DNA of 64,000 nt, from the NCBI GenBank assembly GCA_964480345.1, contig CAYZNW010000003.1, positions 45,493 to 109,492 of the forward strand, read 5' to 3'. A program made the translations under genes and the position numbers. This document shows, piece after piece, positions 34,366 to 55,823 of the stretch. Position 1 is the first letter of the stretch; every line of letters begins with the position of its first letter. The notes beneath the pieces were generated by a model. The model was given only the letters and a program-made list of their open reading frames with translations. It was not told where the DNA came from and ran no database searches. This DNA is from an uncultured Candidatus Saccharibacteria bacterium. Its GTDB lineage: Bacteria; Patescibacteriota; Dojkabacteria; SC72.

Positions 34366-34388
34366 ATTTTTGGTATAACTAAATAGAT

Positions 34389-36002
34389 ATGGAAGACACT
34401 GCCCAAAATACAATACAAAATAATGTGCCAGTACAGCCAGTAGCTCCTACTCCAGTTGTGAATAGTACGGTTACCTCTACTGCACCTCAGACTCCTGCTC
34501 CACAGCAAGTAGAAAGCAAAGGTGTAGAAGAAAGCCAAGATGAAAGACTAGCACAGTTAAGACAAAGTTTAAATGATTTACTAGATAATGAGAGTACAGC
34601 ACCACAGCAAAATGCTGCCCCTACTCCTCCTGTCGTTGAACAAAGTGTACCAGTACAACAATATTCGCAAACAGTAAATCCTCTTCCTGGTATTCAGACA
34701 AGTGTGAATAATGAAGAGAAAGATCTTTCAGAAGCAGTAAATTCTGTTACTGATGATATACCATCATCAACTCCACAACCTACAATTGCTCCTGATACGC
34801 CACTCAAAGAGGTAATCCCAGATGAGATTAAACCGAAAGCTATGATTAGAGATCCTAAGCCAAATAACCTTGCGACTCCTGTTGTATCTCCGGCTGACAG
34901 TGATGAGACAATATCTGGCAGCAATACTACTACAAACGCCAATTTAACAATAGAGAAACTTCTTGCTGAGGCTATAAATCGAAGTGCTTCAGACTTACAT
35001 ATATCAGTTGGATATCCACCAATCCTAAGACTAGATGGTGTTCTTGTTGATATGGAAGAGAAAGTCCTTGCTCCTGAAGATGTTGAGCAACTCATCTTCT
35101 CTGTATTAAGTGATGAGAAGAAAGAGCTACTTGAAGTTAATAGAGAGATAGATTTCGCCTATTTGTTTAATGGATCCGTCACTGCTCGATTTAGAGTAAA
35201 TGCATACTACTCTATGAAAAATCTCTCCGCAGCATTTAGACTAATTCCTTCAAGAGTACGAACAATAGAAGAGCTTATGCTTCCATCTATATACCACCAA
35301 TTAACCAAATTAAAACAGGGATTAGTTTTAGTCACAGGTCCAACAGGACACGGTAAAAGTACTACACTTGCTGCTATGCTTGAAGATATTAATAGAACAA
35401 GATTTAGCCATATTGTAACCATAGAAGATCCAGTAGAGTATGTATTTGAAGGAAAGAAAGCATTGATTGACCAAAGAGAAATGAACGATGATACTCTCTC
35501 TTGGAATATAGCACTGCGAAGCGCACTGCGACAAGATCCTGATGTTATTCTTGTAGGAGAAATGAGAGATTACGAAACAATTGCAGCAGCAATTACTCTT
35601 GCTGAAACAGGACATTTAGTATTTGCGACCTTACACACTAACAGTGCTGCTCAAACAGTAGATAGAATCATTGATGTATTCCCAGAAAACCAACAGCAAC
35701 AAATTCGAGCTCAAATAGCTAACACTTTAGAAGCAGTTGTAGCACAAAGATTAGTACCTCTTGATAAAGGAGGAAGAAGAGCAGTATCAGAAATCATGCT
35801 TAACAACTCTGCTATTGCAAACCTTATTCGTGAAGGTAAAACTCATCAAATAGATAATGTCATTAGAACAAGCTCTGATGTTGGTATGGTATATCTAGAG
35901 AAAGCTCTTGTAGGACTTGTACGAGAAGGAGTCATATCTGTACAGAAAGCACAAGAGTATGCAGTTCACCCAGAAGAAGTTTTAAGATTATTAAAAAATT
36001 AA
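34389..36002 (+). CDS. pilT: type IV pilus retraction ATPase PilT with a ~190-aa Pro/Gln/Thr-rich N-terminal extension
   Basis: 'LVTGPTGHGKSTT', 'GEMRDYETI', 'TGHLVFATLHTNSAAQTVDRI'. Confidence 0.85.
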   Translation: MEDTAQNTIQNNVPVQPVAPTPVVNSTVTSTAPQTPAPQQVESKGVEESQDERLAQLRQSLNDLLDNESTAPQQNAAPTPPVVEQSVPVQQYSQTVNPLPGIQTSVNNEEKDLSEAVNSVTDDIPSSTPQPTIAPDTPLKEVIPDEIKPKAMIRDPKPNNLATPVVSPADSDETISGSNTTTNANLTIEKLLAEAINRSASDLHISVGYPPILRLDGVLVDMEEKVLAPEDVEQLIFSVLSDEKKELLEVNREIDFAYLFNGSVTARFRVNAYYSMKNLSAAFRLIPSRVRTIEELMLPSIYHQLTKLKQGLVLVTGPTGHGKSTTLAAMLEDINRTRFSHIVTIEDPVEYVFEGKKALIDQREMNDDTLSWNIALRSALRQDPDVILVGEMRDYETIAAAITLAETGHLVFATLHTNSAAQTVDRIIDVFPENQQQQIRAQIANTLEAVVAQRLVPLDKGGRRAVSEIMLNNSAIANLIREGKTHQIDNVIRTSSDVGMVYLEKALVGLVREGVISVQKAQEYAVHPEEVLRLLKN

Positions 36003-36005
36003 TAA

Positions 36006-37217
36006 ATGAAGAAATTTAAATACTCAGCAAGAGATAACAGAGGACAAGTGATAGAAGGTGAATTAGAGGCAAAAGATATTGAATCAGTATCAGATATTTT
36101 GCATGACAAAGGATTAGTAACTGTCTCTGTCAAGGAAGGCTCAGGATTTGATTTACAGAAACTAAATGAGATAAATATTGGTGGTGTTCCGATGAAAGAT
36201 AAGGTGGTCTTCATGAGACAGATGTCAACAATGGTTGGTGCTGGTCTACCACTTACTAGAGCATTAGAGATTATGGTTCAACAAGCAAGTAATCCCAAAT
36301 TTAGAAAAGTATTACAAAGTGTTTTGCAATCTGTTGAGTCAGGTAAAACATTAGCGAACTCATTTAGAGAGCAGGAAGAGGTATTTGATAATATTACTGT
36401 TAATCTAATAGAAGCAGGAGAAGAAAGTGGTAACTTAGAAGTTATTTTAGAGAAGCTAGCTACTGAGCTTGAAGAAAGCCAATCTTTATCAAACAAAATT
36501 AGATCAGCGATGATATACCCAGCAATCATTCTTCTGGTTATCATAGGTGTAATCTTAATGATGATGTTTGTCTTAGTCCCATCTATGGCAGAGATATACA
36601 AAGATTTCGATGCAGAACTACCATGGACGACAAGATTCCTTATGAGTATGAGCTCCTTTTTCTTGAACTACTGGTGGGCTATATTAATAGTGATAATCTC
36701 ATTAGCATTAGGTATCAAATACTATCTTGGAACTGAAGCAGGAAGAGCTAACTTTGATAGATTGATATTAAAGGTTCCTGTTGTAGGTCCTATTATTTCT
36801 AAAATACAGCTTTCTCAATTTACTAGAATCTTAGCCTTACTATTAGGTAGTGGATTATCCATTATTAAGGCATTGGAATTAACAGCACAATCATTAAGTA
36901 ACTCAGAATATAGAGGTACAGTTTTAACAGCAAGAGATGAAGTCGAAAAGGGAGGAACATTGGCTCTCCCTATTGCTAGGAGTCCACACTTCCCTCTTCT
37001 AGTAAGTAGTATGATTTCAGTTGGAGAGGAAACAGGAGAGATAGATAATGTATTGAACAAAGTATCTGAATACTACAAAGAAGAGGTAGATACTGCAACA
37101 TCTAACATGTCTACGATTTTAGAGCCTCTGTTCTTAATTATCATGGGCTTAGCAATCGGATTTATTGCTCTAGCAGTGTACATGCCTATGTTCCAATTAT
37201 CCTCTGCTATTGGATAA
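36006..37217 (+). CDS. pilC: type IV pilus platform protein PilC (GspF family)
   Basis: Two GspF repeats; three TM segments. Confidence 0.9.
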   Translation: MKKFKYSARDNRGQVIEGELEAKDIESVSDILHDKGLVTVSVKEGSGFDLQKLNEINIGGVPMKDKVVFMRQMSTMVGAGLPLTRALEIMVQQASNPKFRKVLQSVLQSVESGKTLANSFREQEEVFDNITVNLIEAGEESGNLEVILEKLATELEESQSLSNKIRSAMIYPAIILLVIIGVILMMMFVLVPSMAEIYKDFDAELPWTTRFLMSMSSFFLNYWWAILIVIISLALGIKYYLGTEAGRANFDRLILKVPVVGPIISKIQLSQFTRILALLLGSGLSIIKALELTAQSLSNSEYRGTVLTARDEVEKGGTLALPIARSPHFPLLVSSMISVGEETGEIDNVLNKVSEYYKEEVDTATSNMSTILEPLFLIIMGLAIGFIALAVYMPMFQLSSAIG

Positions 37218-37288
37218 TTCATTGCTTGACATATCAATCAAAGTTCTGTAATTTATAAGTAATTAATTTGTTACTGTCTCTATTATTT

Positions 37289-37858
37289 ATGAAGAAGACT
37301 TCATACAAGGCATTCACATTGATTGAAATGCTTATCGTTATGGGTATCATTATCATTCTTATGGTAGTTGGTATAAGTGCGGCTAGGTTCGCTATTAACA
37401 GGGCAAATGATATTGCTCATCAAAATGCTGTTACTCAGATATTCCAAGCTTTAATGGCTTACTACACAGATAATAGACAGTATCCAGTTGCTCAAAATGT
37501 TCAGACATTGATAGGTACACCAGGAAATACCTCAGCTCCATTAAATAAATATATGAACGAGGGTTCATTTAAGGGTGGTACTCCAGCAAGTTATATATAT
37601 ATGGTAGATGATATACATCAGTCAGTTGCGGTTTGTGTTACATTAGGTGGTGTTAATGATGAAGCAGATAGGGGAATCTTCTGTGATGGTAATGCATTTG
37701 GAAGCCCTGAGCTAGAAACCCCAGTACAAGGTCCTTCCTTCACAAAGAAAGGAACTCTTGACTCTGAAGTGGATGAGCAAGTTTACGGGCTATTAAAAGG
37801 TTATACAGATGGTACATCTAACTGGTATGGAGATTCTACTGGTTGGACACAGAACTAA
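37289..37858 (+). CDS. type IV pilin (putative major pilin), prepilin leader MKKTSYKA|FTLIEML
   Basis: Class III signal with Glu+5 and a hydrophobic N-terminal helix; the ORF track starts at an upstream TTG (37268). Confidence 0.8.
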   Translation: MKKTSYKAFTLIEMLIVMGIIIILMVVGISAARFAINRANDIAHQNAVTQIFQALMAYYTDNRQYPVAQNVQTLIGTPGNTSAPLNKYMNEGSFKGGTPASYIYMVDDIHQSVAVCVTLGGVNDEADRGIFCDGNAFGSPELETPVQGPSFTKKGTLDSEVDEQVYGLLKGYTDGTSNWYGDSTGWTQN

Positions 37859-37883
37859 TAGCATGAGTGCTTAGTTGAAAATG

Positions 37884-37913
37884 AACCCCTCTTTTTAGAG
37901 GGGTTTTTCTTTT
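37884..37913 (+). terminator. rho-independent terminator
   Basis: CCCCTCT-TTTTAG-AGGGG followed by TTTTTCTTTT. Confidence 0.8.
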
Positions 37914-37935
37914 ATGTATATGATAATATATTCTC

Positions 37936-38697
37936 ATGTTTGTAATATATAGTTCTATATTTTTTCTAGGTGCATCTCTTGCCAGTTTTATTAATGCTAC
38001 TCTGTATAGGATTGATAACAAGAAAGAGTTTAAGAATAATTGGAGGACAATAGCCAGAAGAAACTCTTACTGTGAGAACTGTAAAAAAGAGCTTAATTGG
38101 ATAGAGCTATTCCCTATTGTTGGTTATTTAATATATGGAGGTAAATGTTCTAAATGTAGAAAATCTATAAATATCTATTATCCAATCTCTGAGTTTATAT
38201 TGGGAGTTTCTACTCTACTCTTCTATTTAAACAGTGTTCCTTTTTATCTTTATATAATTCTGATTTTTCTGTTTATACTTTCCTACTATGATTATATATA
38301 TAAAGCGGTACCGAAGAGTTTAGTTCATGTGTTTTTAGGTATATCGATTTTGTTTTTTATTGTTTTTAATTTCAGTTTAATTACTTTGGTAATAGTTCTA
38401 TCTTTAGCTATATCTCTATTGATTCTATCTGCTTTAATGAAAAAATCTTTTGGATTAGGAGATGTTTTAATATTAATAGGGCTTGGTATTGTAATGTCTT
38501 ACAAAAGCTTTTTAGTTATGTTTTGGATTGGAATATTACTAGCCCTACTCTGTTCTATAGTTTATTCTATATTGAAAAAAAGAGATTTGAGGAAGATAAA
38601 GATTCCTATGATTCCATTTTTTACGATTTCATTTCTGATTACGTGTATATATGGGTTACATATATATGATTTACTAACTAACTGGTTATCTACTTAG
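37936..38697 (+). CDS. pilD: prepilin peptidase (A24 family, PilD)
   Basis: N-terminal Zn ribbon 'CENC...CSKC'; polytopic; 'GLGDVLILIGLG' catalytic Asp region. Confidence 0.8.
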   Translation: MFVIYSSIFFLGASLASFINATLYRIDNKKEFKNNWRTIARRNSYCENCKKELNWIELFPIVGYLIYGGKCSKCRKSINIYYPISEFILGVSTLLFYLNSVPFYLYIILIFLFILSYYDYIYKAVPKSLVHVFLGISILFFIVFNFSLITLVIVLSLAISLLILSALMKKSFGLGDVLILIGLGIVMSYKSFLVMFWIGILLALLCSIVYSILKKRDLRKIKIPMIPFFTISFLITCIYGLHIYDLLTNWLST

Positions 38698-41600
38698 CCC
38701 ACCAGAACGGTTGTTTTACTCCACTATTAAACCATTTACCGTGTCTCATAATCTGGTTCATTGTAGGTCCATCTACTGTATAGTCTAACTGTACTTGATT
38801 AATTATTGGAGATACATCTGTATCTGTGCTTGTTAATGTTGCTTTGTACTGGAAGAATCTGTAGCTACTTCCTAGAGTTATTAGTTCTGGAGATACGGTT
38901 GGTAGATACTCTTCACTTGTTATGTTATCTATCCATATATTTCTTCCTCCGTATGTATTGTCTACTCTCATTGTTAGAAGGTTGGCTCTATCTAAATGGG
39001 TGTCTAATGTTCTTCCTTTGATTGGTAAATACTCTTTCTGCCATTTAAATACATTTGCTTTGGTAGTAAAGCCACCTGTTGGGAATGTAGATATACTCTC
39101 CCAATTTCTAACTGTGATAGCTCCTGTGTCTTTGTTTACACTTGTTACTACTCCCTGTGCTATGTACTCTCCACTACTGTTTTGTTCTCTTACTATGATC
39201 TTCTCTCCTGTATATATGTTACTTCCTTTGCTCTTCATTCCTTTTACTGTTCCATCTATTGTAAAGGAGGTATCAGAGGATGATGTTATGAGGTTAGAGC
39301 TATCTAATCCTGCTCCAAACTCTATTTCAATGTTATGTGTTCTTAATCCTACTTCATATGCTTGTCTTATTTCATCTGCACTTCTTGCTATGTTGGAGAT
39401 TCTAACTTCGTCTATTTCTCCATTAAACATTTCGACATAATTAGTAAATCCAATATATGGTAAATTAGAATACCCACTCAATCTTAAATTATATGTTGTG
39501 ACAGGAGAACCGTATGCTGTTGAGTTTGATGCTTTGAGTTCACCATTTAGATATATCTTTAAACCAGAAGAGTCTCCTGTAGCTACTACATGATACCATT
39601 TGTTGAGTTCTACAAGGTTAATTGGAGTTAATAACACATTAGTTCCTCCTCTATCCAGAAATTCTAAAGCACCTGTTGTATTTAATCTGATACGGTACCC
39701 AGAGTTATCACCTTTGTTTATAAAATTAGCAACATCATTAAACTCCTTTGGTTTTATCCACGCCTCTAGGGTGATAGCAGATGGATTTAATGAGGTTGAA
39801 TCAGGTATGACAATATAATCTGAGGTACCATTGAAGTTCCTAGCTCCTCCTATTCGACCGTTATTGGTATATGTAGTTCCTATTGACATTCCGTTGTTAT
39901 TGTATCCTGAACTATCTTTGATATATGCTCCATTCCCATCTATTTCATCTAAGTGCCATAGACCTACTGTATTTGCATCTGGTTGATAGTTTGCATATGC
40001 ACTCTCTCCTACTGTTGTAGATATGTTCTCTCCTACTTTATCACTAGCTATATATACAGGGAGAGAAATTTTTGATGATAGATTCTGTGTTGGTAATAGA
40101 TAATTTGAATATATTGATTTAGGTGAAGAGTTACGATCTACACCTTGAGTGTATTCAGCTAATATTTCGGATGCTGATAAAGCTCTATTGTATATTTTAA
40201 CTTCATCTATTAATCCATTGAATCCTGCTTCTCCAGGTATTTGCTTACTAATATTTAACTCTGTATTAGTTAAATTAACAGTGACCGCATATGTACTAAC
40301 TGCACTTGTAGAGACCTGAGCTCCATTTTTGTAGCAATATATATTAGTACCATCGTAGGAAAAAGTGACATGATTCCATTGAGAAATATCAAGATAAATA
40401 AAACATTGGGCTCCATTCCATATACCCGCAGATATATTACCATCGACATTGTACACTAAATGAATATTACTTGGTTCATACCCTCCAAGGCCAAGAATCC
40501 ATTGTCTCATGGTTGGTGAAGCGTATGGCTTAAGCCATAAATCTACTGTATGTACTTTATCTCCTGTTCCTAATCCACTATTTGGAACTGTTATATAATC
40601 ATTAGTTCCATTAAAACTTCTGCTTTTTCCTACTCGCCCATCTACTATTGTTGTTCCGGTAGCAGTACCTACCCTATCTCCTACCTTATCTGCAACTGTA
40701 GTGCCTGATAGCTCATCCATATCCCAATAGGAGATTAATCCTGTATTCTTTTTTTCAAAGATTGTTTTTAGAGAAGAGTATTCTTCAAAAATCTCTTGAG
40801 TGGAAAGTGTACGATTATATATTTTTGGTTCGTCTAATTGTCCGTTGAAAAACCCCGCTGATGCTATATTTGATCCTAGATAGGTATCTTTATCAGGTCC
40901 TAATGTAAATGTAGATGCAAATTCATTTTCAAGTACACCATCTATATATAATCGAGTCTTAGTTCCATCATTTGTTCCTGTTATTAAATGCCAATTACCA
41001 TCATTTATAGAGGATTTGCTTTCATGGGTAGCTGAGTTGTTACCAGATGTGTTATCAAAATCTATTAACACTTTACCAGTTGAAGAAAATGCGTTTATAT
41101 ATAGGAATAGTCCTCTTGATTGGAATAACATTGAATTTGATGTTGTAGTAGTTTTTACCCAAATACTAGCACTCATAGAAGTGAAAGAAGAAAAATCTAT
41201 TAATGGGACTTGTACATAATCGCTAGTCCCATTGAAGCTTCTACTATTATTTGCCTTACCTTGTGCTATTGTAGTTCCTGTAGCAGTTCCGTTATATGTA
41301 CCTACACTATCTTTAACTACACTTCCACTATTCTCATCCATCTTCCAATATGATACTAATCCATCATTTACAGTAGTCCCTATTCTATTTGATTTATATG
41401 GAAGTTCTTGATTATATAACCTCTCTATTTCATCAGATGTTTTAGCTGCGTTGTATATACGTACATCATCAACAATACCATTAAAACCTTTCCACCTATT
41501 AATGATAATATCGCCACTTGCTTGTCTTATTCCCATGTTACTATATGGTATGCTACTAACTTCTTTCCCATTAACATATAATCTAATAACACTATTTGGA

Positions 41601-44600
41601 CTATCTATTACTCCTACAACATGATACCAAGAATCCTCAGCTATTATCCCCACAGGGCTATTAAGTACAGTACTAGCTACTCCTATGTTATCTACCGATG
41701 TTGATATAAAGCTAATATATTTACCAACTGTATTTATTACTAACATGTATTGTCTATCGGAGCAATTTGTCTCACTACAATCAGCTGCTCCTGTATTTTT
41801 ATTTATCAAATCCATCCAAGTACCACTAAGCGTAGAGGTTTTGAACCATGTTGCTACTGAGAGTTGACTACCACTACCATTAATATCTAAATCTGGAGTA
41901 TTTGGTAATGTTATGTAATCAGTACTTCCATTAAAACTCCTAGCTTTATCATACTTACCATCTACTATTGTTGTTCCTGTTGCACTACCATTACTACTCC
42001 CTACGCTGTCTTTTACTTCGCTACCACTTAATTCATCCATCTTCCAATGAGATACTAAACTATCATCTAATGTACTAGTATTATCTGCAGTCATATTACT
42101 ACTACTTTGTGTAAGAGTAGATCTTTTCTCTATACCTTCTAAATAGTCTGATTGAATTCTATCTGCTGCAAGAGCTTTATTGTATAATTTTACTTCGTCG
42201 ATTATACCTGACAGGGTTCCATTAGGATATGTGTTATCACCCGCTATGAACAAATCTCCACTTCCCTGCCTAATTCCACTACTGCTATATGCTGTAGAAG
42301 CCATTAGTGCTCCATTAAGATAGATACGCATATATCCGTTAGTGCTATCAATTGTACCAACAATATGATACCAAGTGTTTGGATTTATATATCCCCATCC
42401 AACATCTGTTTGTCCTACTCCTATGTTATCTACTGCCGTTGAAGAGAAAACTAAAGTACCACTCTGATTAAGAAACATAGCATATTGCCTATTCACTCCA
42501 CTGTCTGGATTTGTATCAGCCTTATAAAGTAGTGTATGCCAATTCCTTTGTGACATATCAGAAATATTCATCCAGAAACTAACAGTAATTTTACTACCAG
42601 CTCCATTAATATCTAAAGAGCTACTGTTTGGTATTCTTACAACACCAGTATTTCCATTGAAGCTTCTAGCTTTTGCATATTTTCCATCTACTATCCCTGT
42701 TCCAGTAGCTGTACCGTTATTACCTGTTCCTGATATATCACTGACAGTTGTTCCACTCTCTTCATTCATACTCCAATACCCAACTAATCCATCTTCTTTA
42801 TTATTGTATAAGCTACTATTATCAAAAGATCTTAATGTACTCTTTGCTGTATTTTCTTTCCACTCACTCCATGTACCATCATTAGGGTTGTTACTATTTC
42901 CACCTCTAATATGAAATCTAGTATTTCCCGAGTTATAGTTTGAAAGAACTTCTGAGGAAGTAAGAGATCTACTGTAGATTCGAACAGAATCCATCAATCC
43001 TTTATAGTTATTCCCTCCTGCATTTGTAAGCCTTCCCATCTCTAAATTTGTACTGTTAGAAACACTATTTATAGGTCCTGCATTTATCACATCTGCTAGT
43101 CGACCATCAAGATATAATGATAATATTGTAGAGGATTTTGTGGCTACCACATGATGCCATTGATCGTCTACAACAATAAAGTTTGAAGAGCCAATATTTT
43201 TTGTTCCTCCGCTATCGTGAACTTCAAACAATATCTTTCCTTTAGGTTCACCATTAATAGAGATAACACTTAAATTGTAACCAATTCTAGTTGGAGAAAA
43301 AACTTGTTTACTAATTAATGTCGGAAAGGATTCTGCAATAGCATAATCTGCTTTGAACCATACTTCCAAACTAAAGTCTCCTGTACTAAAATCACCTACT
43401 GTACTGTTAGATGCTGTTACATAATCATCAACTCCATCAAACATTAATCCTCCACCTCCCCATCTCCTGTTGTTGTATGTCCAACCACTACCTATAACCT
43501 TATCTTGTCCTGTCGTATCAGAAAAATTAGTTAGAGTTCCATTACAACCACTACCACAACTACCTCCACTACTTGCTACTGTTCCACTACTCTCATTGAA
43601 ATTCCACTGAGCTACTAAGCCAGTAGTGCTATACGGTACCTCCCCATCTCCTGTATTTATACCTGATACAGTAGAAGATACATTTACTTTTGATACACTT
43701 GATCCTGAATCAAATACTGTAGATTCATACTCTCCTGAATATCTCTCTTTACCATACAAATATGTCTTATATATCTCATCTGCACTTCTAGCTATATTGG
43801 ATAAACGTACCTCATCTACTAACCCATTAAAGCCTACTTCGCTCCCTGGTCCTTTACCAATATTTAACTCTGTATTAGCTAAATTGACAGGAACTCCAAC
43901 AGTAGGAGCATTACTAGATACCTGTACTCCATTCTTATAGCAATACATATTAGTTCCGTTGTAGGTGAAAGCTATATGATTCCACTGAGAAATATCAAGG
44001 CGAATAGGACATTGTGAACCACTCCATATACCAGCATAAATATTCCCATCAGTACCATATATGAGATGTATATTACCTTGGTCATATCCTCCCATCACAA
44101 GAAGCCATTGTCTTATTGTTGGTAGAGTATATGGTTTAATCCATAAATCTATTGTATGTGTCTTATCTCCTGTTCCTAATCCACTATTTGGAACTGTTAT
44201 ATAATCATTCTCTCCATCAAATTCGTATCCTTTCCCTATCTTCCCATCTACACCAATTGGTGATATATCTAACAACTTAATTGATGTGAAAAAAGTAACT
44301 TCAGCTACAATAATATTATTAGTTGTAGGAGTGAAATTAACCCAAGTAGCATTGTTATTATATTGCCAACTACTTCCACTATATTTAACAGCAACAAAAT
44401 GATTACTGTTATTTGCTTCTAATCCAGTTATACCTTGAGCTGAAAGAGATGGAGAATACATGATATATCCACTACCTGCTTCAGCATCTGTAACAGCTAT
44501 TCCAGAGTTGATAGTAGGAGTGATTATCCTAATCCCATTCCGATCTATAAAATAGCAATTAGCATCACCATATGTACACTCAATATCTATCTCTCCAGCA

Positions 44601-46678
44601 TTATCAACTCCTCCATAACGATTTAATTTAAAAGTAAGATTAGAGCTTTGTATGCCATAGCTCATACCATTTAAAGAAGTTGCAATATGGTTATTATTAG
44701 TAGAACTGTCGGCTGCTGGTGTTAATGCTGGTATTCTGTATCTAACAATAACTATTCCCGATCCACCGTTTCCGCCTGCAAGGTATGCTCCTGTAAATGA
44801 ACCCCCACCCCCTCCTCCACCTGTATTCGCTATACCATTAGTACCTGCACCATTTAGAACTCCACTTCCTCCACCTCCATTTCCACCAGTACCAACATAA
44901 GAGCCATTAACTTCTCCACCACCTCCACCTCCTGCATATACAACTGCAGTTCCTGTAATATCGCTAACTCTTCCAGCACCACCATTACCTGATCCTGAAC
45001 TGTTTCCTCCGTCTGCTCCCACACCACCTGCACCTCCACCTCCTCCATTTGTTCCTACCCATCCTGAAACTATGTATCCAGCACCTCCGTTATATCCTTG
45101 GGAACCAATTCCTCCTGTTGATAAAGGAGCGGATACAACAACAGCACCACCACCACCACTACCTCCACTTCCACCTGCAAGTTGCCCATGAGTTATTCCG
45201 GCACCCCCTCCTTCAGCAATCAGAGATGAGAAGGCCGAATCTTGTCCTTTATTACCATTATATGCACCTCCGTCTGCTCCTCCATTACCTCCATTCCCTA
45301 CAGTGACTGCAATATTCCCTTTAGATACAGTAAAAGAAGATTGCTCTACAAAACCTCCTGCTCCTCCTCCAGAACCAGTATTTGCACCACCCCCTCCTCC
45401 TCCTATAACTAACACATCCACTTTCCCATCTGTATGTGCTGTAAAAGTTCCACTAGAAGTAAAAGTATGAATCACATAATCACCAACCCTTGTTACTGTT
45501 CCACCACTTGCTGAAAAATATGGAAGATCTCCAAAACTCCAATGCCCCACAGTATTAGAATCCACAACAGGCTTCTCCACACCTAATAACTCTACCCCAC
45601 TCACACTAGATACATAATCTGAACTTATATATGTACCACTATCAAAATCTACCTTACTGTTATGAACAATACTAGGATCTATTCTAATTGGAAAAACCCT
45701 ATCATTCGAATACAACCAATCGGAATCTAAAACTAACCTTATCTCATACCTACCTCCATCAATATGACTAATATTAAACTCCACATCATACGTCTTACTA
45801 TTAACTCCATCCACTGCAAAACTAGGAAGAAAATGACTAACATAATTACCATACCTATCCTCAAAATAGTAAACCTCCCTACTACCCTCACCTACATTAA
45901 ACCAACCCTTCTTTAACATTAACCCTTCTTCAACACTCAAATCAAAAACATACTCATTAGCAGGTAGAGAACAATCCTGTACATCCTCACAATCTTTAAT
46001 ATATGAATCTAAATTACGAATAATTATCTCCTCCTTAAGACCTATTCCCTCTATGATCTGATACTCTAAATCTATACCTTTTGATATTTCCTTATTTACT
46101 ACTGTCTTCTTAGTAATACTATCTTTCTCTTCTTCTCCAAACACTCTTCCCAAATCAACTAATTCTGTATTACTCTTAATATCTCTGTTACCCATTATCT
46201 CTGATACCTCTTTCAACTTCTCTTCATCTTTATCATTTAATTTCTCTAAATCGCTAACCTTAACCCCCTTTATTGACATCTCTATACCGTAGCTTTTAAT
46301 AGGTCTGAAGAAATTCTTAACCTTATCCCAAAACCCTCTTGTATTTTCTTCAAAAGGATTCCTCTTACTAATATCTGATTCAAACCTAACCCACTGAACA
46401 TCAGGTTGATCTCTTTTACCAAAATCTACTGAAAATTTAGGATTCTTGTTCCCATAAATAGTATGACTATTTGTACTTTGCAAAAATATATCAGAGTTAG
46501 GTTTTACACTACTAATATAGTAGATGAGGAATGACAGAAGAATAGCTATTCCAATAACAATACCAAATATAAATGATTTCTTACCTTTTAAGTTCTTCCA
46601 ATTAAATCTTCTTTTACTGTTGTTGAGATGTTTTAGGACAGATTTCATCATCATAAATATTAACATAGTAGAATACAT
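38690..46678 (-). CDS. giant (2662 aa) membrane-anchored surface protein with a Gly-rich segment and at least 8 LamG/Concanavalin-A-like lectin modules
   Basis: It has an N-terminal TM helix and a ~220-aa GGxGG-rich region. Units of 'W.MDE.SG...NG.ATG......GK...SFNG..DY' ending 'DEVRIYN.ALS..EI' recur throughout. Confidence 0.8.
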   Translation of the reverse strand: MYSTMLIFMMMKSVLKHLNNSKRRFNWKNLKGKKSFIFGIVIGIAILLSFLIYYISSVKPNSDIFLQSTNSHTIYGNKNPKFSVDFGKRDQPDVQWVRFESDISKRNPFEENTRGFWDKVKNFFRPIKSYGIEMSIKGVKVSDLEKLNDKDEEKLKEVSEIMGNRDIKSNTELVDLGRVFGEEEKDSITKKTVVNKEISKGIDLEYQIIEGIGLKEEIIIRNLDSYIKDCEDVQDCSLPANEYVFDLSVEEGLMLKKGWFNVGEGSREVYYFEDRYGNYVSHFLPSFAVDGVNSKTYDVEFNISHIDGGRYEIRLVLDSDWLYSNDRVFPIRIDPSIVHNSKVDFDSGTYISSDYVSSVSGVELLGVEKPVVDSNTVGHWSFGDLPYFSASGGTVTRVGDYVIHTFTSSGTFTAHTDGKVDVLVIGGGGGGANTGSGGGAGGFVEQSSFTVSKGNIAVTVGNGGNGGADGGAYNGNKGQDSAFSSLIAEGGGAGITHGQLAGGSGGSGGGGAVVVSAPLSTGGIGSQGYNGGAGYIVSGWVGTNGGGGGAGGVGADGGNSSGSGNGGAGRVSDITGTAVVYAGGGGGGEVNGSYVGTGGNGGGGSGVLNGAGTNGIANTGGGGGGGSFTGAYLAGGNGGSGIVIVRYRIPALTPAADSSTNNNHIATSLNGMSYGIQSSNLTFKLNRYGGVDNAGEIDIECTYGDANCYFIDRNGIRIITPTINSGIAVTDAEAGSGYIMYSPSLSAQGITGLEANNSNHFVAVKYSGSSWQYNNNATWVNFTPTTNNIIVAEVTFFTSIKLLDISPIGVDGKIGKGYEFDGENDYITVPNSGLGTGDKTHTIDLWIKPYTLPTIRQWLLVMGGYDQGNIHLIYGTDGNIYAGIWSGSQCPIRLDISQWNHIAFTYNGTNMYCYKNGVQVSSNAPTVGVPVNLANTELNIGKGPGSEVGFNGLVDEVRLSNIARSADEIYKTYLYGKERYSGEYESTVFDSGSSVSKVNVSSTVSGINTGDGEVPYSTTGLVAQWNFNESSGTVASSGGSCGSGCNGTLTNFSDTTGQDKVIGSGWTYNNRRWGGGGLMFDGVDDYVTASNSTVGDFSTGDFSLEVWFKADYAIAESFPTLISKQVFSPTRIGYNLSVISINGEPKGKILFEVHDSGGTKNIGSSNFIVVDDQWHHVVATKSSTILSLYLDGRLADVINAGPINSVSNSTNLEMGRLTNAGGNNYKGLMDSVRIYSRSLTSSEVLSNYNSGNTRFHIRGGNSNNPNDGTWSEWKENTAKSTLRSFDNSSLYNNKEDGLVGYWSMNEESGTTVSDISGTGNNGTATGTGIVDGKYAKARSFNGNTGVVRIPNSSSLDINGAGSKITVSFWMNISDMSQRNWHTLLYKADTNPDSGVNRQYAMFLNQSGTLVFSSTAVDNIGVGQTDVGWGYINPNTWYHIVGTIDSTNGYMRIYLNGALMASTAYSSSGIRQGSGDLFIAGDNTYPNGTLSGIIDEVKLYNKALAADRIQSDYLEGIEKRSTLTQSSSNMTADNTSTLDDSLVSHWKMDELSGSEVKDSVGSSNGSATGTTIVDGKYDKARSFNGSTDYITLPNTPDLDINGSGSQLSVATWFKTSTLSGTWMDLINKNTGAADCSETNCSDRQYMLVINTVGKYISFISTSVDNIGVASTVLNSPVGIIAEDSWYHVVGVIDSPNSVIRLYVNGKEVSSIPYSNMGIRQASGDIIINRWKGFNGIVDDVRIYNAAKTSDEIERLYNQELPYKSNRIGTTVNDGLVSYWKMDENSGSVVKDSVGTYNGTATGTTIAQGKANNSRSFNGTSDYVQVPLIDFSSFTSMSASIWVKTTTTSNSMLFQSRGLFLYINAFSSTGKVLIDFDNTSGNNSATHESKSSINDGNWHLITGTNDGTKTRLYIDGVLENEFASTFTLGPDKDTYLGSNIASAGFFNGQLDEPKIYNRTLSTQEIFEEYSSLKTIFEKKNTGLISYWDMDELSGTTVADKVGDRVGTATGTTIVDGRVGKSRSFNGTNDYITVPNSGLGTGDKVHTVDLWLKPYASPTMRQWILGLGGYEPSNIHLVYNVDGNISAGIWNGAQCFIYLDISQWNHVTFSYDGTNIYCYKNGAQVSTSAVSTYAVTVNLTNTELNISKQIPGEAGFNGLIDEVKIYNRALSASEILAEYTQGVDRNSSPKSIYSNYLLPTQNLSSKISLPVYIASDKVGENISTTVGESAYANYQPDANTVGLWHLDEIDGNGAYIKDSSGYNNNGMSIGTTYTNNGRIGGARNFNGTSDYIVIPDSTSLNPSAITLEAWIKPKEFNDVANFINKGDNSGYRIRLNTTGALEFLDRGGTNVLLTPINLVELNKWYHVVATGDSSGLKIYLNGELKASNSTAYGSPVTTYNLRLSGYSNLPYIGFTNYVEMFNGEIDEVRISNIARSADEIRQAYEVGLRTHNIEIEFGAGLDSSNLITSSSDTSFTIDGTVKGMKSKGSNIYTGEKIIVREQNSSGEYIAQGVVTSVNKDTGAITVRNWESISTFPTGGFTTKANVFKWQKEYLPIKGRTLDTHLDRANLLTMRVDNTYGGRNIWIDNITSEEYLPTVSPELITLGSSYRFFQYKATLTSTDTDVSPIINQVQLDYTVDGPTMNQIMRHGKWFNSGVKQPFWWAK
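40250..40630. repeat. intragenic DNA repeat, copy 2 (paralogous to 43850-44230)
   Basis: About 70 nt is near-identical (40551-40618 vs 44151-44215) within ~380 nt of 75-95% similarity. It encodes duplicated LamG modules. Confidence 0.6.
43850..44230. repeat. intragenic DNA repeat, copy 1
   Basis: See copy 2. Confidence 0.6.
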
Positions 46679-46742
46679 ATGTCATATTGTTGAGAATCAC
46701 TTGAAATATTGATACAAGTAAGATAATCTAAAATGTAGAAAG

Positions 46743-47510
46743 ATGAAAACTGCCAAAAAACACATATACTCTTACAGAGGAAAATATGAAGGATACACCC
46801 TAATAGAAATGCTAGTAGTAATGGCCATATTCGTCATCTTCGTAGCTATGTCTTTCTCTTCTTTCAGTGGATTACAGAATACAATTAAGATGAACGAGTA
46901 CTCATTAACGCTGGAACAAAATATTACCAATGTACAAAGAGCATCTATGTTGTTGGAGAAGAAAGCAGATGACAATTGGCTATACGGATTAGGAATAGAT
47001 CTAACTAAATTAAACCTAGAGGGTCATTACGATACATTTAAATGGTGTTCTCCTTTTACAGATTATGGAGATGTAACAACTAAATCATATATACCTTCTT
47101 TTAATCCAGCTCTAGATCTAGAATCTAGCTTAAACTTTGGCAAGAATGGATATATTCCTATCCCTACAGAAGCATCATATGCAGAAGGAACTTGCAAAAA
47201 TAGTACTTTATCCTCCATTGTTAGTTTAGTGGGATACAAAACAAGTTTAACTCCTCCAAAAGGTAAAATAACCACAAACAGCAATCCATTTAACAATAGA
47301 CCACTAAAATATCTTGTATTTGAGTCTGTTTCTGGAAGAGCATTCTTCTATGATGAAACAGGGAGAGTTGTCAATTACGATGCTAAAGGAAGACCCGTAA
47401 CAGGTCAACCTATCAACTTAGTTATTACCATAGATCCTGATACAAATATACCAATTAAGGAGATAGTTGTTGAGAATCTCTCTGGTCGTATATCAACTAT
47501 AAAGAAATAG
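46743..47510 (+). CDS. minor type IV pilin / pseudopilin
   Basis: Prepilin motif 'G|YTLIEMLVVMAIFVI'. Confidence 0.7.
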   Translation: MKTAKKHIYSYRGKYEGYTLIEMLVVMAIFVIFVAMSFSSFSGLQNTIKMNEYSLTLEQNITNVQRASMLLEKKADDNWLYGLGIDLTKLNLEGHYDTFKWCSPFTDYGDVTTKSYIPSFNPALDLESSLNFGKNGYIPIPTEASYAEGTCKNSTLSSIVSLVGYKTSLTPPKGKITTNSNPFNNRPLKYLVFESVSGRAFFYDETGRVVNYDAKGRPVTGQPINLVITIDPDTNIPIKEIVVENLSGRISTIKK

Positions 47511-47514
47511 TTTT

Positions 47515-48069
47515 ATGAAAATGAAAATAGAGACAAGTAAATATGAAGCAATGGGATTTGTTGAAGCTCTTGTAGCTATCATGGTAGTTGGTATATCAGC
47601 TGTAGTTCTAATGGAGATAGCTGCTAACACAATGCAAAATATGATACAGAATGAAAGAGTTGATCAAGTTACTCAGTACGCTGTAGAGGGGGCTGTAATG
47701 GCTCAGGTAATAGCTAGTAAAAACAAAGAAGCTGGAGGAGGGCTGTTTCCTACTGAGACAGGAGTAGAAAGATGTTATGCTATGGAGAAACTTCCTGATG
47801 GTGGATATGGGTTTGTAAAAGATGGAGAAAATGGATTTATAAGATTTTTAAATACTGACAGAAACCTATACAAAGAACAGGCTACTGTATACGATGAGAA
47901 AGGAGAAAAAACTGAATACTTTAGAATACTGTGTATTAACTTCCCTGCAGAATCAGATTACTCCTTCTTAATTGGACGAGTAGTTGTTGGACAAAGCACC
48001 TCTTCTGGAACTATAAGCAAGGGGAATCAGGTTAAAGATTACTCATATTATACCTCTATAAAATTGTAG
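47515..48069 (+). CDS. minor type IV pilin / pseudopilin
   Basis: 'G|FVEALVAIMVVGI'. Confidence 0.65.
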   Translation: MKMKIETSKYEAMGFVEALVAIMVVGISAVVLMEIAANTMQNMIQNERVDQVTQYAVEGAVMAQVIASKNKEAGGGLFPTETGVERCYAMEKLPDGGYGFVKDGENGFIRFLNTDRNLYKEQATVYDEKGEKTEYFRILCINFPAESDYSFLIGRVVVGQSTSSGTISKGNQVKDYSYYTSIKL

Positions 48070-48071
48070 AT

Positions 48072-48782
48072 ATGAAAGAAACAAATATTGAAGAACAAAA
48101 ATATGAAGCATTTAGTTTAGTAGAAATGTTATTAACTATTGTCATCATTGGGTTTGTAATGCTCATATCTGCTGTTACATTAACTACTTTAATTAAAGTC
48201 TCTACAGTCTCTAGTAATAAAACTAGAGTAAGAAATGAATCAGAGTATATATTGGAGTTAATTCGAAAAACAGTAAGAAACTCTAATCCATCAGATGTAT
48301 TTATTTTTAATTCACAAAATGCAAGAGTGTATGCGAGAAACAGTACTACTAATTCGATTACTATAGAAAGTACTGGAAGAGAAGATTTGAAAGCACTTTA
48401 CTCCTCACCTCTTGGAGAAAACGAGGTAGGGAATGAAATTCATTTTAGACCGTACGGCTACAATAGTTGGGTTTGTATAGGATTTTTCAAAGATAGGGAT
48501 TCGGAGAAAGGATATATAGTTAAAACAAATGTGGAAGATTTACTTAATAATCATGATTCATGTTTCCAAAGTGCACCTGGCAAATTCTTGATATCTTTAA
48601 ACTCAGACTATGTATCTGTGGATACTTTCTCTATAGCATATTCTAAAAGTTCAGATAACAATTATCTAATTCGTTTTGATATAGAAGCACAACCAGTTTT
48701 CTGGTATTTTGCTACTGGCGCTCCAGTTAGTAGGAAAGTTTTAAGACAGACAGTTGTGAAGACTGAAGGTTTGATATGGTAG
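48072..48782 (+). CDS. minor type IV pilin / pseudopilin
   Basis: 'A|FSLVEMLLTIVIIG'. Confidence 0.65.
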   Translation: MKETNIEEQKYEAFSLVEMLLTIVIIGFVMLISAVTLTTLIKVSTVSSNKTRVRNESEYILELIRKTVRNSNPSDVFIFNSQNARVYARNSTTNSITIESTGREDLKALYSSPLGENEVGNEIHFRPYGYNSWVCIGFFKDRDSEKGYIVKTNVEDLLNNHDSCFQSAPGKFLISLNSDYVSVDTFSIAYSKSSDNNYLIRFDIEAQPVFWYFATGAPVSRKVLRQTVVKTEGLIW

Positions 48783-48809
48783 TTACTATATGTTATCTTT
48801 ACTGTATAT

Positions 48810-49760
48810 ATGAATAACTGCTCTAAAAATCACCAAAACTTTCATGGATATTCTGCGCAGGCTATAGTAATAGCGTTGGTGGTCATAGTTGTCTCAGTTA
48901 TTATTGGTATGTCAGTAATATCGAGATCTTTGCGAGATAAAAAATCTGCAAATACTGAAAGATACTCCACTGAAGCTTTAGAGATCTCAGATTCAGTCAT
49001 AGATATCTTTTCTACTGTTGATACACAAACTCTGTTTGATAATATCGAATATGAAGATGCTAAGTTGAAGCGATTTAATGGTATAGCACAGCTTCAAGAG
49101 TATTTAAAAAGAATAGGAATAGAGAGTGATATATCCTCTCTATTTAAAAATTGTAGCGATAGCAATTCTGGAATAGTAGTATCTATGGATAAGGTAGATT
49201 CTGAAGAATTAGAATTGTTGGAATCAAACACATTTGGATATAGGCTTAATCCTTTGCAAGTGGCACAACAGTGTACTCTTTCTATTACTGCAGAACCTAG
49301 AGCAGCCTCTTCTGTTGGATTAATACTGCACAAGATATATGGAAAAGGATATCCTTCAGCTATAGAGTACAAGCGATATGATTTTGATGATGTAATAGCT
49401 TATTGTGTGTCTGAAGATACTACTTCATGTAAGAACAACTCTTTAGCAGATGGAGCTTGGAATATCTGGAACAAGGCAACTCCTATGAAAATAAATCTGA
49501 AAGAGGAGAAAGATGGTTTCGCTCTTGATGAAGTGAGAATCACTGCTATTGGGGGAGCATTAGGAATAGAGAACTCATTGAGTGTTGCAGGATGTGCAGG
49601 TGATATGGACTTAAAGATGGCAAAACTTACTGTAATGACTACATGTAATGGAGAATCAAGAGGTAAAGAGGTGTTAATACCAAGTCCTAATAATTTAAGT
49701 TACTCTACCCTCTTTGATTATGTCTTTTACAATAATCAAGGTTTTTTTCAACCATATTAA
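48810..49760 (+). CDS. large minor pilin lacking Glu+5 (GspK/PilX-like tip pseudopilin candidate)
   Basis: It has 'G|YSAQAIVIALVVIV' with Gln at +5. It is the largest of the quartet (316 aa). Confidence 0.5.
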   Translation: MNNCSKNHQNFHGYSAQAIVIALVVIVVSVIIGMSVISRSLRDKKSANTERYSTEALEISDSVIDIFSTVDTQTLFDNIEYEDAKLKRFNGIAQLQEYLKRIGIESDISSLFKNCSDSNSGIVVSMDKVDSEELELLESNTFGYRLNPLQVAQQCTLSITAEPRAASSVGLILHKIYGKGYPSAIEYKRYDFDDVIAYCVSEDTTSCKNNSLADGAWNIWNKATPMKINLKEEKDGFALDEVRITAIGGALGIENSLSVAGCAGDMDLKMAKLTVMTTCNGESRGKEVLIPSPNNLSYSTLFDYVFYNNQGFFQPY

Positions 49761-49778
49761 TTTATTTATTAAAAATTT

Positions 49779-50177
49779 ATGGATAATTCAAACAAAACAA
49801 TATTAATCATAGAAGATGAGCAAGATCTTTTAGATTCATATAAAGAGCTAATCAGTATGGGGGGATATTCGGTAGCTACCTCCATAGATGGATATCACGG
49901 TCTTGATTACTTAGCTACAAATATTGGTCATGTAGATCTGGTTCTTTTAGATCTGATGATGCCTGGTGTAGATGGTCTAGAAGTATTACGAGCCATTAAA
50001 GCTGATAAGGATAAGTATGGTGATATGCCAATCATCGTTTTAACAAATATGTCTAGTGAACTAGTCATAAAAGAAGCTTTTGATCTAGGGGCATCTTCAT
50101 ACTTGGTTAAATCAGACTTAGATTATGATGGTTTACTTAAGGAGCTTAATAAATATTTAGGAAGCAGTGATAAATAA
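49779..50177 (+). CDS. single-domain CheY-like response regulator receiver (PilH-like)
   Basis: 'ILIIEDE', 'LVLLDLMMPGVDG', 'YLVKS'. Confidence 0.8.
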   Translation: MDNSNKTILIIEDEQDLLDSYKELISMGGYSVATSIDGYHGLDYLATNIGHVDLVLLDLMMPGVDGLEVLRAIKADKDKYGDMPIIVLTNMSSELVIKEAFDLGASSYLVKSDLDYDGLLKELNKYLGSSDK

Positions 50178-51658
50178 TGAGTAAATATTACTTCTCAAAA
50201 GAATCAAAGATAAAGAGAATTCTACTTCGAATATTCATAGTCGTATTAGTAATTTCTTTAGGATATGGTGCATACTACTACTTTTCAAATATTGATAAGG
50301 ATATAACAACAAGATATTTAAATGGTACTAAATATGAATTCCTTAACAGATTTTATGAGAGTAATAATGGATACACCTATACATATACTGCCAAAGGGAT
50401 AGTTTACAATGCAAAAAAGAGTGATTCAGAGGTGACTTTTGATATTAATGCTTGGGATCCAAAAACAAAAGAGAGCTTGTACTACTCCAATATATCTCTC
50501 GGAAATGTAAAATCAGGTGCCCTATCAATAGAGGATGCTTTCTATGATTTCAAGCCAGTAAAGATACAGTTTGATTTCGTAAAGAAGAAATTGGTTAATG
50601 TAGAAGTTACTGATTTAGTTTTAGAACAGAAAGAGTATCAGTATGTAAATGACAGCATATTAAGGTTCCTTACAAAAGGATATTCAGCAAATATTAATGA
50701 GGAAGGCTCCACATATTCTGCAGATTTACCAGTAAATATATTTGATAGAAATGGGCAAATTTCTCTCTTGCCATTGTATGTTAACGGTGATGCTTTAACT
50801 GCTTTGTATGGCATAGCAGTATTAACAAAAGATACTGAAGTAGATACCACCTTTAATCCTGATACATACATTGAAGCGTCTGTCTCTCGAATTAGTAATA
50901 GTATGAAAGCAAACGGTATTCTGTCTACTATGATTCCTGATGGATGCTCTTTGCTTTTGAAAATAGAGCAAGAAGGAGTATACTCTGACTCTCAAATTAA
51001 TAAATTACGAAATATTTTTTGTTCTCAAGGAGAATTTACTTCCATATTTTCAAGAAAAGAAGAAAGTAAGTGGAAGGATTTACTCACTTTTGTAGGTTCA
51101 GAGAAATTAGATACTGCTTACAAACCAGATGTCGAATTCGTAGGACTTATGTCTCTGTCTGATGCCTACTCTATGGCGACTTTGTACGGTAAGACTCTTA
51201 CTGAGGCGGAGGTTACAAATGTAGAGAACAGAATAGTAAATTCAGTGATATCATCTGGACGAGATTTAACGACATACGCTGTTCCGTACAAAACCTTATG
51301 TTCGCTAGCCTACTCTTTAACCTCTGTACCTAACTACAGTAATATGGAGAAGTATAATTCGGTAGTTGTTGGATTAGAAGATACAGTAAGCTCATATTCT
51401 AATAACGAGGAGCTACTGAAACTGTTAGAGAAAGACACAAAATCTACTTTGATGTGTGCACAGGCTTTTGCAAATAGTGAAGATAAAAGAGTTAGAGATC
51501 TTTTTAGTTCTACTTTAATAAAGATGTTCTATTTAAATATGTATGATAAAGAGGGACATACTGGTCTTTGGTCAGTATTCCCTGAGTATATGATGATGAG
51601 TATTGAAGATAGTGTAAGGTATTTTAACTTGTTAAAGGTAGAGTATGCGAAAAAGTAG
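50177..51658 (+). CDS. N-terminally anchored extracytoplasmic hypothetical protein (493 aa)
   Basis: Single N-terminal TM; no recognised motifs. Confidence 0.45.
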   Translation: MSKYYFSKESKIKRILLRIFIVVLVISLGYGAYYYFSNIDKDITTRYLNGTKYEFLNRFYESNNGYTYTYTAKGIVYNAKKSDSEVTFDINAWDPKTKESLYYSNISLGNVKSGALSIEDAFYDFKPVKIQFDFVKKKLVNVEVTDLVLEQKEYQYVNDSILRFLTKGYSANINEEGSTYSADLPVNIFDRNGQISLLPLYVNGDALTALYGIAVLTKDTEVDTTFNPDTYIEASVSRISNSMKANGILSTMIPDGCSLLLKIEQEGVYSDSQINKLRNIFCSQGEFTSIFSRKEESKWKDLLTFVGSEKLDTAYKPDVEFVGLMSLSDAYSMATLYGKTLTEAEVTNVENRIVNSVISSGRDLTTYAVPYKTLCSLAYSLTSVPNYSNMEKYNSVVVGLEDTVSSYSNNEELLKLLEKDTKSTLMCAQAFANSEDKRVRDLFSSTLIKMFYLNMYDKEGHTGLWSVFPEYMMMSIEDSVRYFNLLKVEYAKK

Positions 51659-54077: not shown

Positions 54078-54121
54078 TCTCTGATATTATATATAAATAT
54101 AAATTGAAGAATTTGTAGAAC

Positions 54122-55820: not shown

Positions 55821-55823
55821 GAC

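Follow-up and report, generated by a model that had tools for sequence, protein, structure and literature searches.

The DNA analysed here, called the window throughout, is a stretch of 64,000 nucleotides (positions 45,493 to 109,492, forward strand) of contig CAYZNW010000003.1 from the GenBank assembly GCA_964480345.1, deposited as an uncultured Candidatus Saccharibacteria bacterium and placed by GTDB in the Dojkabacteria (Patescibacteriota). Within a type IV pilus (T4P) locus it carries a giant gene on the minus strand at 38690-46678, which an ORF check shows to begin with ATG and to encode 2662 amino acids (aa), exactly the extent, strand and length given in an earlier annotation made from the letters alone (the original prediction); NCBI holds an identical protein record (P0001). 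The true start may be Met10 or Met11, ~30 nt downstream (near 46648-46651), because homologues begin MKSVL.... The gene and its protein are divided as follows.

38690..46678, minus strand: giant gene, 2662 aa, about 286 kDa
46511..46678, minus strand: basic N-terminal tail and lone hydrophobic segment (aa 1-56), with no pilin-type G/FTLIE motif
45479..46510, minus strand: family-defining N-domain (aa 57-400), no Pfam match, predicted beta-supersandwich
44735..45460, minus strand: Gly_rich_2 (aa 407-648), a Pfam match, 38% Gly
44282..44734, minus strand: module of ~150 aa without family assignment (aa 649-799), recurring elsewhere in relatives' chains
43766..44278, minus strand: LamG_3 module 1 (aa 801-971), 62% identical to module 6
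42944..43504, minus strand: LamG_3 module 2 (aa 1059-1245)
42149..42721, minus strand: LamG_3 module 3 (aa 1320-1510), 47% identical to module 4
41420..41995, minus strand: LamG_3 module 4 (aa 1562-1753)
40784..41296, minus strand: LamG_3 module 5 (aa 1795-1965)
40160..40672, minus strand: LamG_3 module 6 (aa 2003-2173)
39362..39901, minus strand: LamG_3 module 7 (aa 2260-2439), closest solved sequence relative 4qvs
38693..39358, minus strand: family-defining C-domain (aa 2441-2662), a small beta-barrel plus a poorly modelled part, ending in GPTMNQIMRHGKWFNSGVKQPFWWAK

The N-terminal anchoring and the Gly-rich segment that had been predicted were both recovered. The sole hydrophobic segment, at aa ~35-56 (FIFGIVIGIAILLSFLIYYIS), is a signal-anchor or transmembrane helix (Kyte-Doolittle peak 2.65 at aa 37, with all other scanning windows <=1.6), and the ectodomain is acidic (isoelectric point 4.9). 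The N-domain is predicted to be a beta-supersandwich of the galactose-mutarotase or glycosidase-accessory type. The Gly-rich segment matches Gly_rich_2 (PF21722) over profile positions 1-226 of 226 at 80.1 bits (cut-off 24.3); it is not at the corresponding point in the closest paralogue-type proteins (P0002-P0006) and, judged from the alignment with these, is an insertion into the window protein after ...TVGHWSF. In the C-domain model the first ~100 residues form a confident small beta-barrel and the remainder, about half of the model, is of low confidence; its fold matches are generic small barrels only (tailspike N-terminal domains, EF-Tu domain II) and weak, with root-mean-square deviations of up to 17 Å and viral TM-scores <=0.32. 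Otherwise, Pfam (E<=10) and PDB sequence searches with the N-domain, the C-domain and the Gly-rich domain returned nothing meaningful. By Pfam the giant protein has no N_methyl match and neither SLH nor other known wall-binding domains, and DUF2341 (PF10102) was found neither in the whole protein nor in its unassigned pieces at E<=10.

A C-terminal match to a known enzyme family had been named beforehand as a result that would speak against an adhesin. Pfam, PDB sequence and fold searches detected no enzyme domain in either the last 222 aa or the first 350 aa, which bears on the notion of a secreted enzyme that degrades polysaccharides, or of a phage-derived element resembling a tail fibre. 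Glycosidases and lyases commonly have accessory domains of the N-domain's fold class, and the C-terminal barrel and Gly_rich_2 weakly resemble parts of phage tail fibres or tailspikes; however, with no catalytic domain by any of these searches, viral fold matches no better than stated above and no phage genes next to the giant gene, such an identity is highly improbable and can be regarded as largely excluded.

Laminin_G_3 (PF13385) matches the protein in seven stretches (540.9 bits against a cut-off of 27.6, E = 2.8e-164; Pfam), and a custom-built module hidden Markov model (HMM) recovers seven domains of 192-239 bits each, the rest of the protein remaining at noise level. The LamG_3 identity originally proposed therefore stands for each module, whilst the proposed count of at least eight LamG_3/ConA-like modules has to be lowered to seven; the candidate for an eighth, at aa 649-799, was rejected (hhalign probability 0.2, and in Pfam only a chance-level match to Nepo_coat). 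The closest solved sequence relative of a LamG module, 4qvs, is an S-layer-domain protein (E = 3.6e-8).

By sequence comparison the window protein belongs to a large family of giant cell-surface proteins specific to Patescibacteria. The hallmarks of this family are an N-terminal beta-supersandwich domain and a C-domain ending in GPTMxQIMRHGKWF...FWW, neither of them in Pfam, and the window protein has both: a transmembrane segment followed by a ~340-aa N-domain, and a ~220-aa C-domain with the tail motif. A whole-protein search placed relatives in Dojkabacteria/WS6 and in Microgenomates-type lineages (Levy-, Roizman-, Gottesman-, Shapiro-, Collier-, Blackburn- and Woykebacteria). The N-domain is present in 72 of 119 homologues and the C-domain likewise in 72 of the 119, the shared feature being the two ends and not the LamG array; the middle modules vary in number and kind (LamG, Gly_rich_2, fibrinogen-like, DUF2341, FN3 and others), with DUF2341 carried by some distant homologues. 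The window N-domain is 40-58% identical to the N-domains of at least 44 homologues. Among 1.84 billion proteins an N-domain profile matched cluster representatives at residues ~30-400 in every case, 182 of them with E<=1e-30 and 538 with E<=1e-10; those of full length are giants of roughly 1,500-6,400 aa.

The tail motif, [ML][RK]HG[KQ]WF, typically lies 12-16 residues before the stop. In the fetched loci the MRHGKWF tail occurred once per locus, nearly always at this distance from the family member's stop, and a general sorting signal was ruled out in the sampled loci since the tail was single in each and confined to family members. A sub-group (P0043-P0068, P0084 and P0110) lacks the MRHGKWF tail and instead has FN3-like repeats and the motif F-x-L-E-G-L-x-L-x-G-[IL]-x-[IF]-x, and this repeated terminal motif may be an alternative anchoring or assembly signal. 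Literature on LamG/laminin G proteins, Dojkabacteria and pili yielded no description of the window sub-family. Giant modular surface proteins from the candidate phyla radiation (CPR) were already known; the sub-family of giant lectin-repeat proteins with terminal domains of its own is previously undescribed.

The gene lies between pilD and the minor-pilin genes and is divergent from the latter, as had been stated originally. The parts of the T4P locus on either side of it are the following.

32554..38697, plus strand: pilB, pilT, pilC, a major-pilin-like gene and pilD, the half of the T4P operon upstream of the insertion
46701..46727, plus strand: promoter-like element TTGAAA...GATAAT before the minor-pilin genes, at the right-hand edge of the insertion
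46743..56546, plus strand: four minor-pilin-like genes, a response regulator gene, orf493, orf810, pilM and pilN/pilO-like genes, the downstream half of the T4P operon

On the plus strand pilB is at 32554, pilT at 34389, pilC at 36006, the pilin gene at 37268 and pilD at 37936-38697. The giant gene and pilD are convergent, with 3' ends overlapping by 8 bp (38690-38697), and no terminator-like site was found at these ends. The four minor-pilin-like genes (46743-49760, plus strand) are divergent from the giant gene; the pilin signal G/A-[FY]-[TS]-L-[IV]-E is clear in three of the four and non-canonical in the fourth. The whole T4P locus is flanked by gyrA-gyrB-holB on one side and by rnc and clpB on the other. 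Proteins encoded around the giant gene are up to 91.5% identical to their counterparts in a Candidatus Dojkabacteria (WS6) genome, which identifies the source organism as a Dojkabacterium within the Patescibacteria/CPR.

Whether this position is conserved was assessed in both directions, from 80 genome and 38 strong metagenome loci of the giant gene, and from T4P loci reached via PilC homologues. Only two of the more than 100 family members fetched share the T4P context, both from very close relatives. One, in a Candidatus Dojkabacteria/WS6 sister metagenome-assembled genome (MAG; locus L005), is the only one of the 80 genome loci with an adjoining pilD-pilin-pilC-pilT-pilB, a distant PilB occurring in one further locus, and the same MAG has a second family copy elsewhere (L004). 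The other (L084), a 3.4-kb contig, is the only one of the 38 metagenome loci with window-type minor pilins upstream and divergent; its N-domain is 72% and its minor pilins 75-83% identical to those of the window. Conversely, the giant gene is in none of five other Dojkabacteria T4P loci, with PilC proteins 86, 80, 76, 76 and 74% identical. In these the order, on one strand, is gyrA-gyrB-holB followed by pilB-pilT-pilC-pilin-(pilD where called)-minor pilins-response regulator-...-pilM, and neither the N- nor the C-domain of the giant family has a match in the 13-21 kb at any of the five.

In the uninterrupted locus L164 only 43 bp separate the pilD stop from the first minor-pilin start. Because this spacer (GTTCTTGAAATATTGGAACAAGTAATATAATC...) aligns with window positions 46701-46740, the giant gene can be placed precisely at the point where the pilD stop codon gives way to the promoter-like spacer ahead of the minor pilins. 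On the 760-kb contig Ga0334889_1000001 the T4P locus (528,948-550,159) and the family member (664,661-685,551) are ~115 kb apart and unlinked. As one insertion is more parsimonious than five losses, comparison of these loci shows the window gene to be a paralogue recently inserted antisense into an otherwise contiguous T4P operon in a narrow lineage. The position therefore reflects this insertion and no ancestral pilus component, and it says little about pilus function.

The element TTGAAA-N15-(G/T)ATAAT is conserved, by sequence comparison, between the window (46701-46727) and L164 (about 4405-4431), and for this reason the minor pilins are probably driven by a promoter of their own, independent of pilD read-through. 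A promoter and terminator scan of the divergent spacer gave 5 promoter hits against 2.8 expected from shuffled sequence, not above expectation, and 0 terminators. The PilD C-terminus of the window and of L005, both with the insertion, is shorter than and different from that of L164.

These results bear directly on the analogy that had been drawn with PilY1/PilC1, under which the giant protein would be presented at the T4P tip by the four minor pilins and act as the pilus adhesin. The gene does adjoin the minor-pilin quartet, divergently and with a 64-bp control region in common; none of the four minor pilins has a large adhesin module, the largest being 316 aa; and CPR pili with lectin-type tip adhesins are known (PMC11623550). 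However, the position is a recent insertion on the comparison above and the gene is missing from five related T4P loci, so the pili of these work without it, and nearly all family members lie away from T4P machinery. The protein has neither a class III signal peptide nor the PilY1/PilC propeller, and the tip adhesins of TM7x are modular pilins rather than separate membrane-anchored giants (PMC11623550). Moreover, a 2662-aa protein held by an N-terminal transmembrane helix cannot ride a pilus unless it is cleaved. A tip adhesin of this kind is thus very unlikely. Independence from the pilus operon had been named in advance as the outcome that would count against co-occurrence of the gene with T4P minor pilins, and it was observed in both directions, with L005 and L084 the only cases of co-occurrence. 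The corrective value of this result is that the pilus-locus position found here should not count as evidence for a new pilus-tip adhesin.

Two other large proteins are encoded in the T4P locus between the response regulator and pilM, orf493 (493 aa, 50177-51658) and orf810 (810 aa, 51645-54077); orf810 is Cys-rich with a signal-like N-terminus, and Pfam matches neither of the two. Both are kept in the T4P loci of closer relatives, namely L164 (41% and 64% identity, respectively), L165 and L166, and are not in L167 and L168. Being large and conserved at the locus, these two make better candidates than the giant gene for factors associated with the pilus. Upstream of the T4P locus the window encodes a TrwB/HerA-like coupling-protein ATPase of 825 aa (3867-6344), a tyrosine integrase of 444 aa (11671-13005) and a 1206-aa ORF without a Pfam match (16521-20141), which together may be parts of a mobile or conjugative element.

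The giant gene has also diverged faster than its surroundings. With the window protein the syntenic L005 orthologue shares only 45-57% identity, whilst the neighbouring PilB, PilC, PilT and pilin are 91.5, 87, 80 and 76% identical, and the non-syntenic paralogue L004 of the same MAG is more similar, at 64% over aa 1732-2662. P0002, a protein of 2391 aa without Gly_rich_2, is 97.7% identical to the window protein in the C-domain and 58% in the N-domain, a contrast which suggests recent recombination or gene conversion between paralogues; several MAGs hold two or more family copies. The pattern, as read from these alignments, is that of a fast-evolving, recombining surface protein. Domain reshuffling has been proposed for large patescibacterial proteins, consistent with what is seen in this family (PMC11809585).

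Away from the window the family has a recognizable neighbourhood, and the usual Dojkabacteria copy is unlinked to the T4P locus. Its order, on one strand, is rho, LysM/M23, ..., a second giant gene, the family member, a membrane-anchored cyclophilin peptidyl-prolyl isomerase (PPIase), comEA, comEC, MBL and argS. Of the 62 genome loci that extend 3 kb or more downstream, 24 have the giant-PPIase-ComEA-ComEC arrangement, as do 22 of the 38 metagenome loci. The PPIase gene stands directly after the usual family copy and before comEA/comEC (for example L003, 16652-17308; about 27 loci), and its product may serve the giant protein as a dedicated helper in folding. Directly upstream, in many Dojkabacteria loci, is the second giant gene, whose complete copies encode about 1,000-1,850 aa with a signal peptide and no Pfam match (for example L003, 5049-9998); the window has no homologue of it.

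The Microgenomates-type order is giant-giant-one to three pilin-like genes (T2SSG/ComP-like)-Wzy_C/TPR membrane protein-obg-LysM/M23-rho. Pilin-like genes lie within 5 kb in 14 of the 62 loci (directly adjacent in nine), and one locus has pilins solely at 5-10 kb. The giant gene abuts one to three pilin-like genes in L030 (11031-15174), L024, L029, L034, L055, L068 and others, and such loci also have, by the giant gene, a membrane protein of ~680 aa with Wzy_C (O-antigen-ligase-like) and TPR domains, which we take to resemble pilin O-glycosylation enzymes such as PglL/TfpO. Several loci with patescibacterial neighbourhoods (L024, L025, L029, L054, L055, L067 and others) bear the titles Gammaproteobacteria, Pseudomonadales, Vitreimonas or Saccharibacteria and are probably mislabelled bins.

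The family might on these grounds have a functional tie to the machinery of pili and DNA uptake and yet supply no pilus subunit; the giant protein could, for instance, keep the cell attached to a host surface during DNA uptake by pili and ComEA/ComEC. The PPIase-ComEA-ComEC genes are within 5 kb and on the same strand in the 24 loci noted above; the pilin-like genes within 5 kb are in another 14 of the 62, as compared with the single locus at 5-10 kb; and the window lineage would add a third, independent pilus-related context. On the other hand, the loci are not independent: rho and a LysM-M23 peptidase gene flank both arrangements, which may for this reason be a single ancient block of synteny that includes housekeeping genes (ArgRS, Obg, Rho), rather than associations that arose repeatedly and independently. 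Neither context is present in about 24 of the 62 loci, and the neighbour counts are raw, without a baseline from random genome positions. A functional link of the family to pili or competence is thus possible but unproven, and we consider an accessory role unlikely, if worth keeping in view. Its fuller form, in which the family would be a conserved pilus or DNA-uptake accessory, an anchored multivalent lectin fixing the cell to the host envelope at the site of uptake, is somewhat less likely again. If true, it would explain why PPIase-comEA-comEC usually follow the gene in Dojkabacteria and a pilin triplet adjoins it in Microgenomates, as well as why a spare copy landed in the T4P operon of the window lineage and was kept, and docking to the pilus or competence machinery would fall to the conserved C-domain.

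The same architecture could also belong to an envelope scaffold, an S-layer-like or wall-spanning structural component fixed at both conserved ends and not an adhesin. Conserved termini with a variable middle would fit such a scaffold, as would 4qvs as the closest solved relative of a LamG module and the membrane-anchored PPIase gene after the usual copy as a possible folding helper. Yet SLH and other known wall-binding domains are missing by Pfam, and copy number, length and module content differ widely between close relatives, which is a better fit to a variable interaction surface; a scaffold is accordingly a doubtful explanation.

We consider it reasonably probable, if far from assured, that the giant protein is a membrane-anchored, multivalent, lectin-type surface adhesin that evolves fast. 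This reading follows from the N-terminal membrane anchor together with an acidic ectodomain bearing seven ConA-like lectin modules. The single hydrophobic helix would most likely hold the protein in the cytoplasmic membrane, with the supersandwich domain, of a fold class common in carbohydrate-handling proteins, near the envelope; Gly_rich_2, the unassigned module and the seven LamG modules would extend outward as a long, variable binding array, and the conserved C-terminal beta-barrel domain with its aromatic tail would lie at the distal end. Such a fibrillar, multivalent adhesin would bind glycans or surface polymers of a substrate or of a host cell, this Dojkabacterium being presumably an episymbiont. 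Anchoring and display would fall to the conserved ends, whilst duplication of modules and recombination between paralogues would diversify the middle.

Giant, reshuffled surface proteins have been proposed as adhesins in Patescibacteria (PMC11809585), and epibiotic growth of a Saccharibacterium needs T4P together with several envelope proteins that bind glycans (PMC10633639). Minor pilins of modular build, bearing lectin or propeller modules, are the pilus adhesins of TM7x, and further surface adhesins that act at close range have been postulated (PMC11623550), a category that the window protein, by analogy, fits. How CPR/Patescibacteria recognize and hold their hosts is largely unknown outside a few cultivated Saccharibacteria, and the proteins of this family are reasonable candidates for host-range determinants.

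Several points weigh against the adhesin reading. Adhesin function is deduced from anatomy, LamG/ConA-like folds occur in non-adhesive proteins too, and the N-terminal segment is either a retained anchor or a cleaved signal peptide. Were the protein anchored at its N-terminus, its distal tip would be the strongly conserved C-domain, an unusual arrangement for a host-range adhesin, and this domain could instead bind a conserved partner of the cell's own. Furthermore, the insertion has been retained, intact in at least the window genome and in part in L005 and L084, and the giant gene and the minor pilins have the 64-bp control region in common, so that some functional coupling to the minor pilins is still conceivable. 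What the sequences show is the protein's domain make-up with its one hydrophobic segment, its family, the insertion and its fast, mosaic evolution; surface exposure, lectin or adhesin activity, host attachment and any coupling to pilus expression are what we infer. Of the original 'pilus-presented or cell-surface adhesin', then, the surface part agrees with the anatomy, its function being inferred, and the pilus-tip part is not borne out.

Among the closest known systems are the giant surface proteins of Patescibacteria/CPR (FhaB-, DUF2341- and LamG-type; the 'LamG domain-containing protein' of NCBI), which are of the same phylum and size, have an N-terminal anchor and likewise combine repeated carbohydrate-binding-type modules, reshuffling between relatives and a proposed role in host adhesion (PMC11809585). 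The window sub-family differs from these in its own N-terminal supersandwich and its own C-terminal barrel with the MRHGKWF...FWW tail, two terminal domains found neither in Pfam nor in the papers searched, and the window protein is without an FhaB or DUF2341 domain. An identity with the DUF2341/MJ1470 'type IV pili-like system component' was rejected on the same DUF2341 result (E<=10).

PilY1/PilC1 of Gram-negative type IVa pili resembles the window protein as a large non-pilin protein whose gene adjoins those of four minor pilins and for which an adhesive role is suggested. The window protein, however, lacks both the C-terminal PilY1 beta-propeller (by Pfam and fold matches) and a vWA domain, having seven LamG_3 modules and Gly_rich_2 instead, a difference in domain content that had been anticipated; its gene is divergent from the minor-pilin operon, not inside it, and missing from close relatives' T4P loci.

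Modular minor pilins with lectin modules are found in the monoderm Streptococcus sanguinis (PilB/PilC). The PilX1/PilX2 minor pilins of Saccharibacteria TM7x likewise combine lectin or jelly-roll modules with T4P (PMC11623550). In modular pilins, however, the module is grafted on a pilin with a class III signal peptide, whilst the window protein is without that signal and roughly ten times as large. A pilin identity was rejected: the N-terminus (...KGKKSFIFGIVIG...) is without G/A-F-T-L-x-E and has no N_methyl, the motif being present in the neighbouring pilins. TafC, a subunit of haloarchaeal Tat fimbriae (NF052521), shares LamG-type similarity in seven stretches but was also rejected, as the score of 203.5 bits is far below the NCBIfam equivalog cut-off of 410 and reflects generic LamG similarity; the window protein has no Tat signal, and domain of life and architecture differ (PMC11821415).

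The fibrillar adhesins of monoderm bacteria consist of an anchor, a stalk of repeats and a binding domain. The window protein is like them in its single anchor, long array of beta-sandwich modules, acidic ectodomain and rapidly varying repeats. It differs in having an N-terminal transmembrane helix and not a C-terminal LPXTG, in having LamG lectin repeats and not an Ig-like stalk, and in that its distal end is its most conserved part. By analogy, the fibrillar adhesins of monoderm bacteria are the system that the window protein would work most like.

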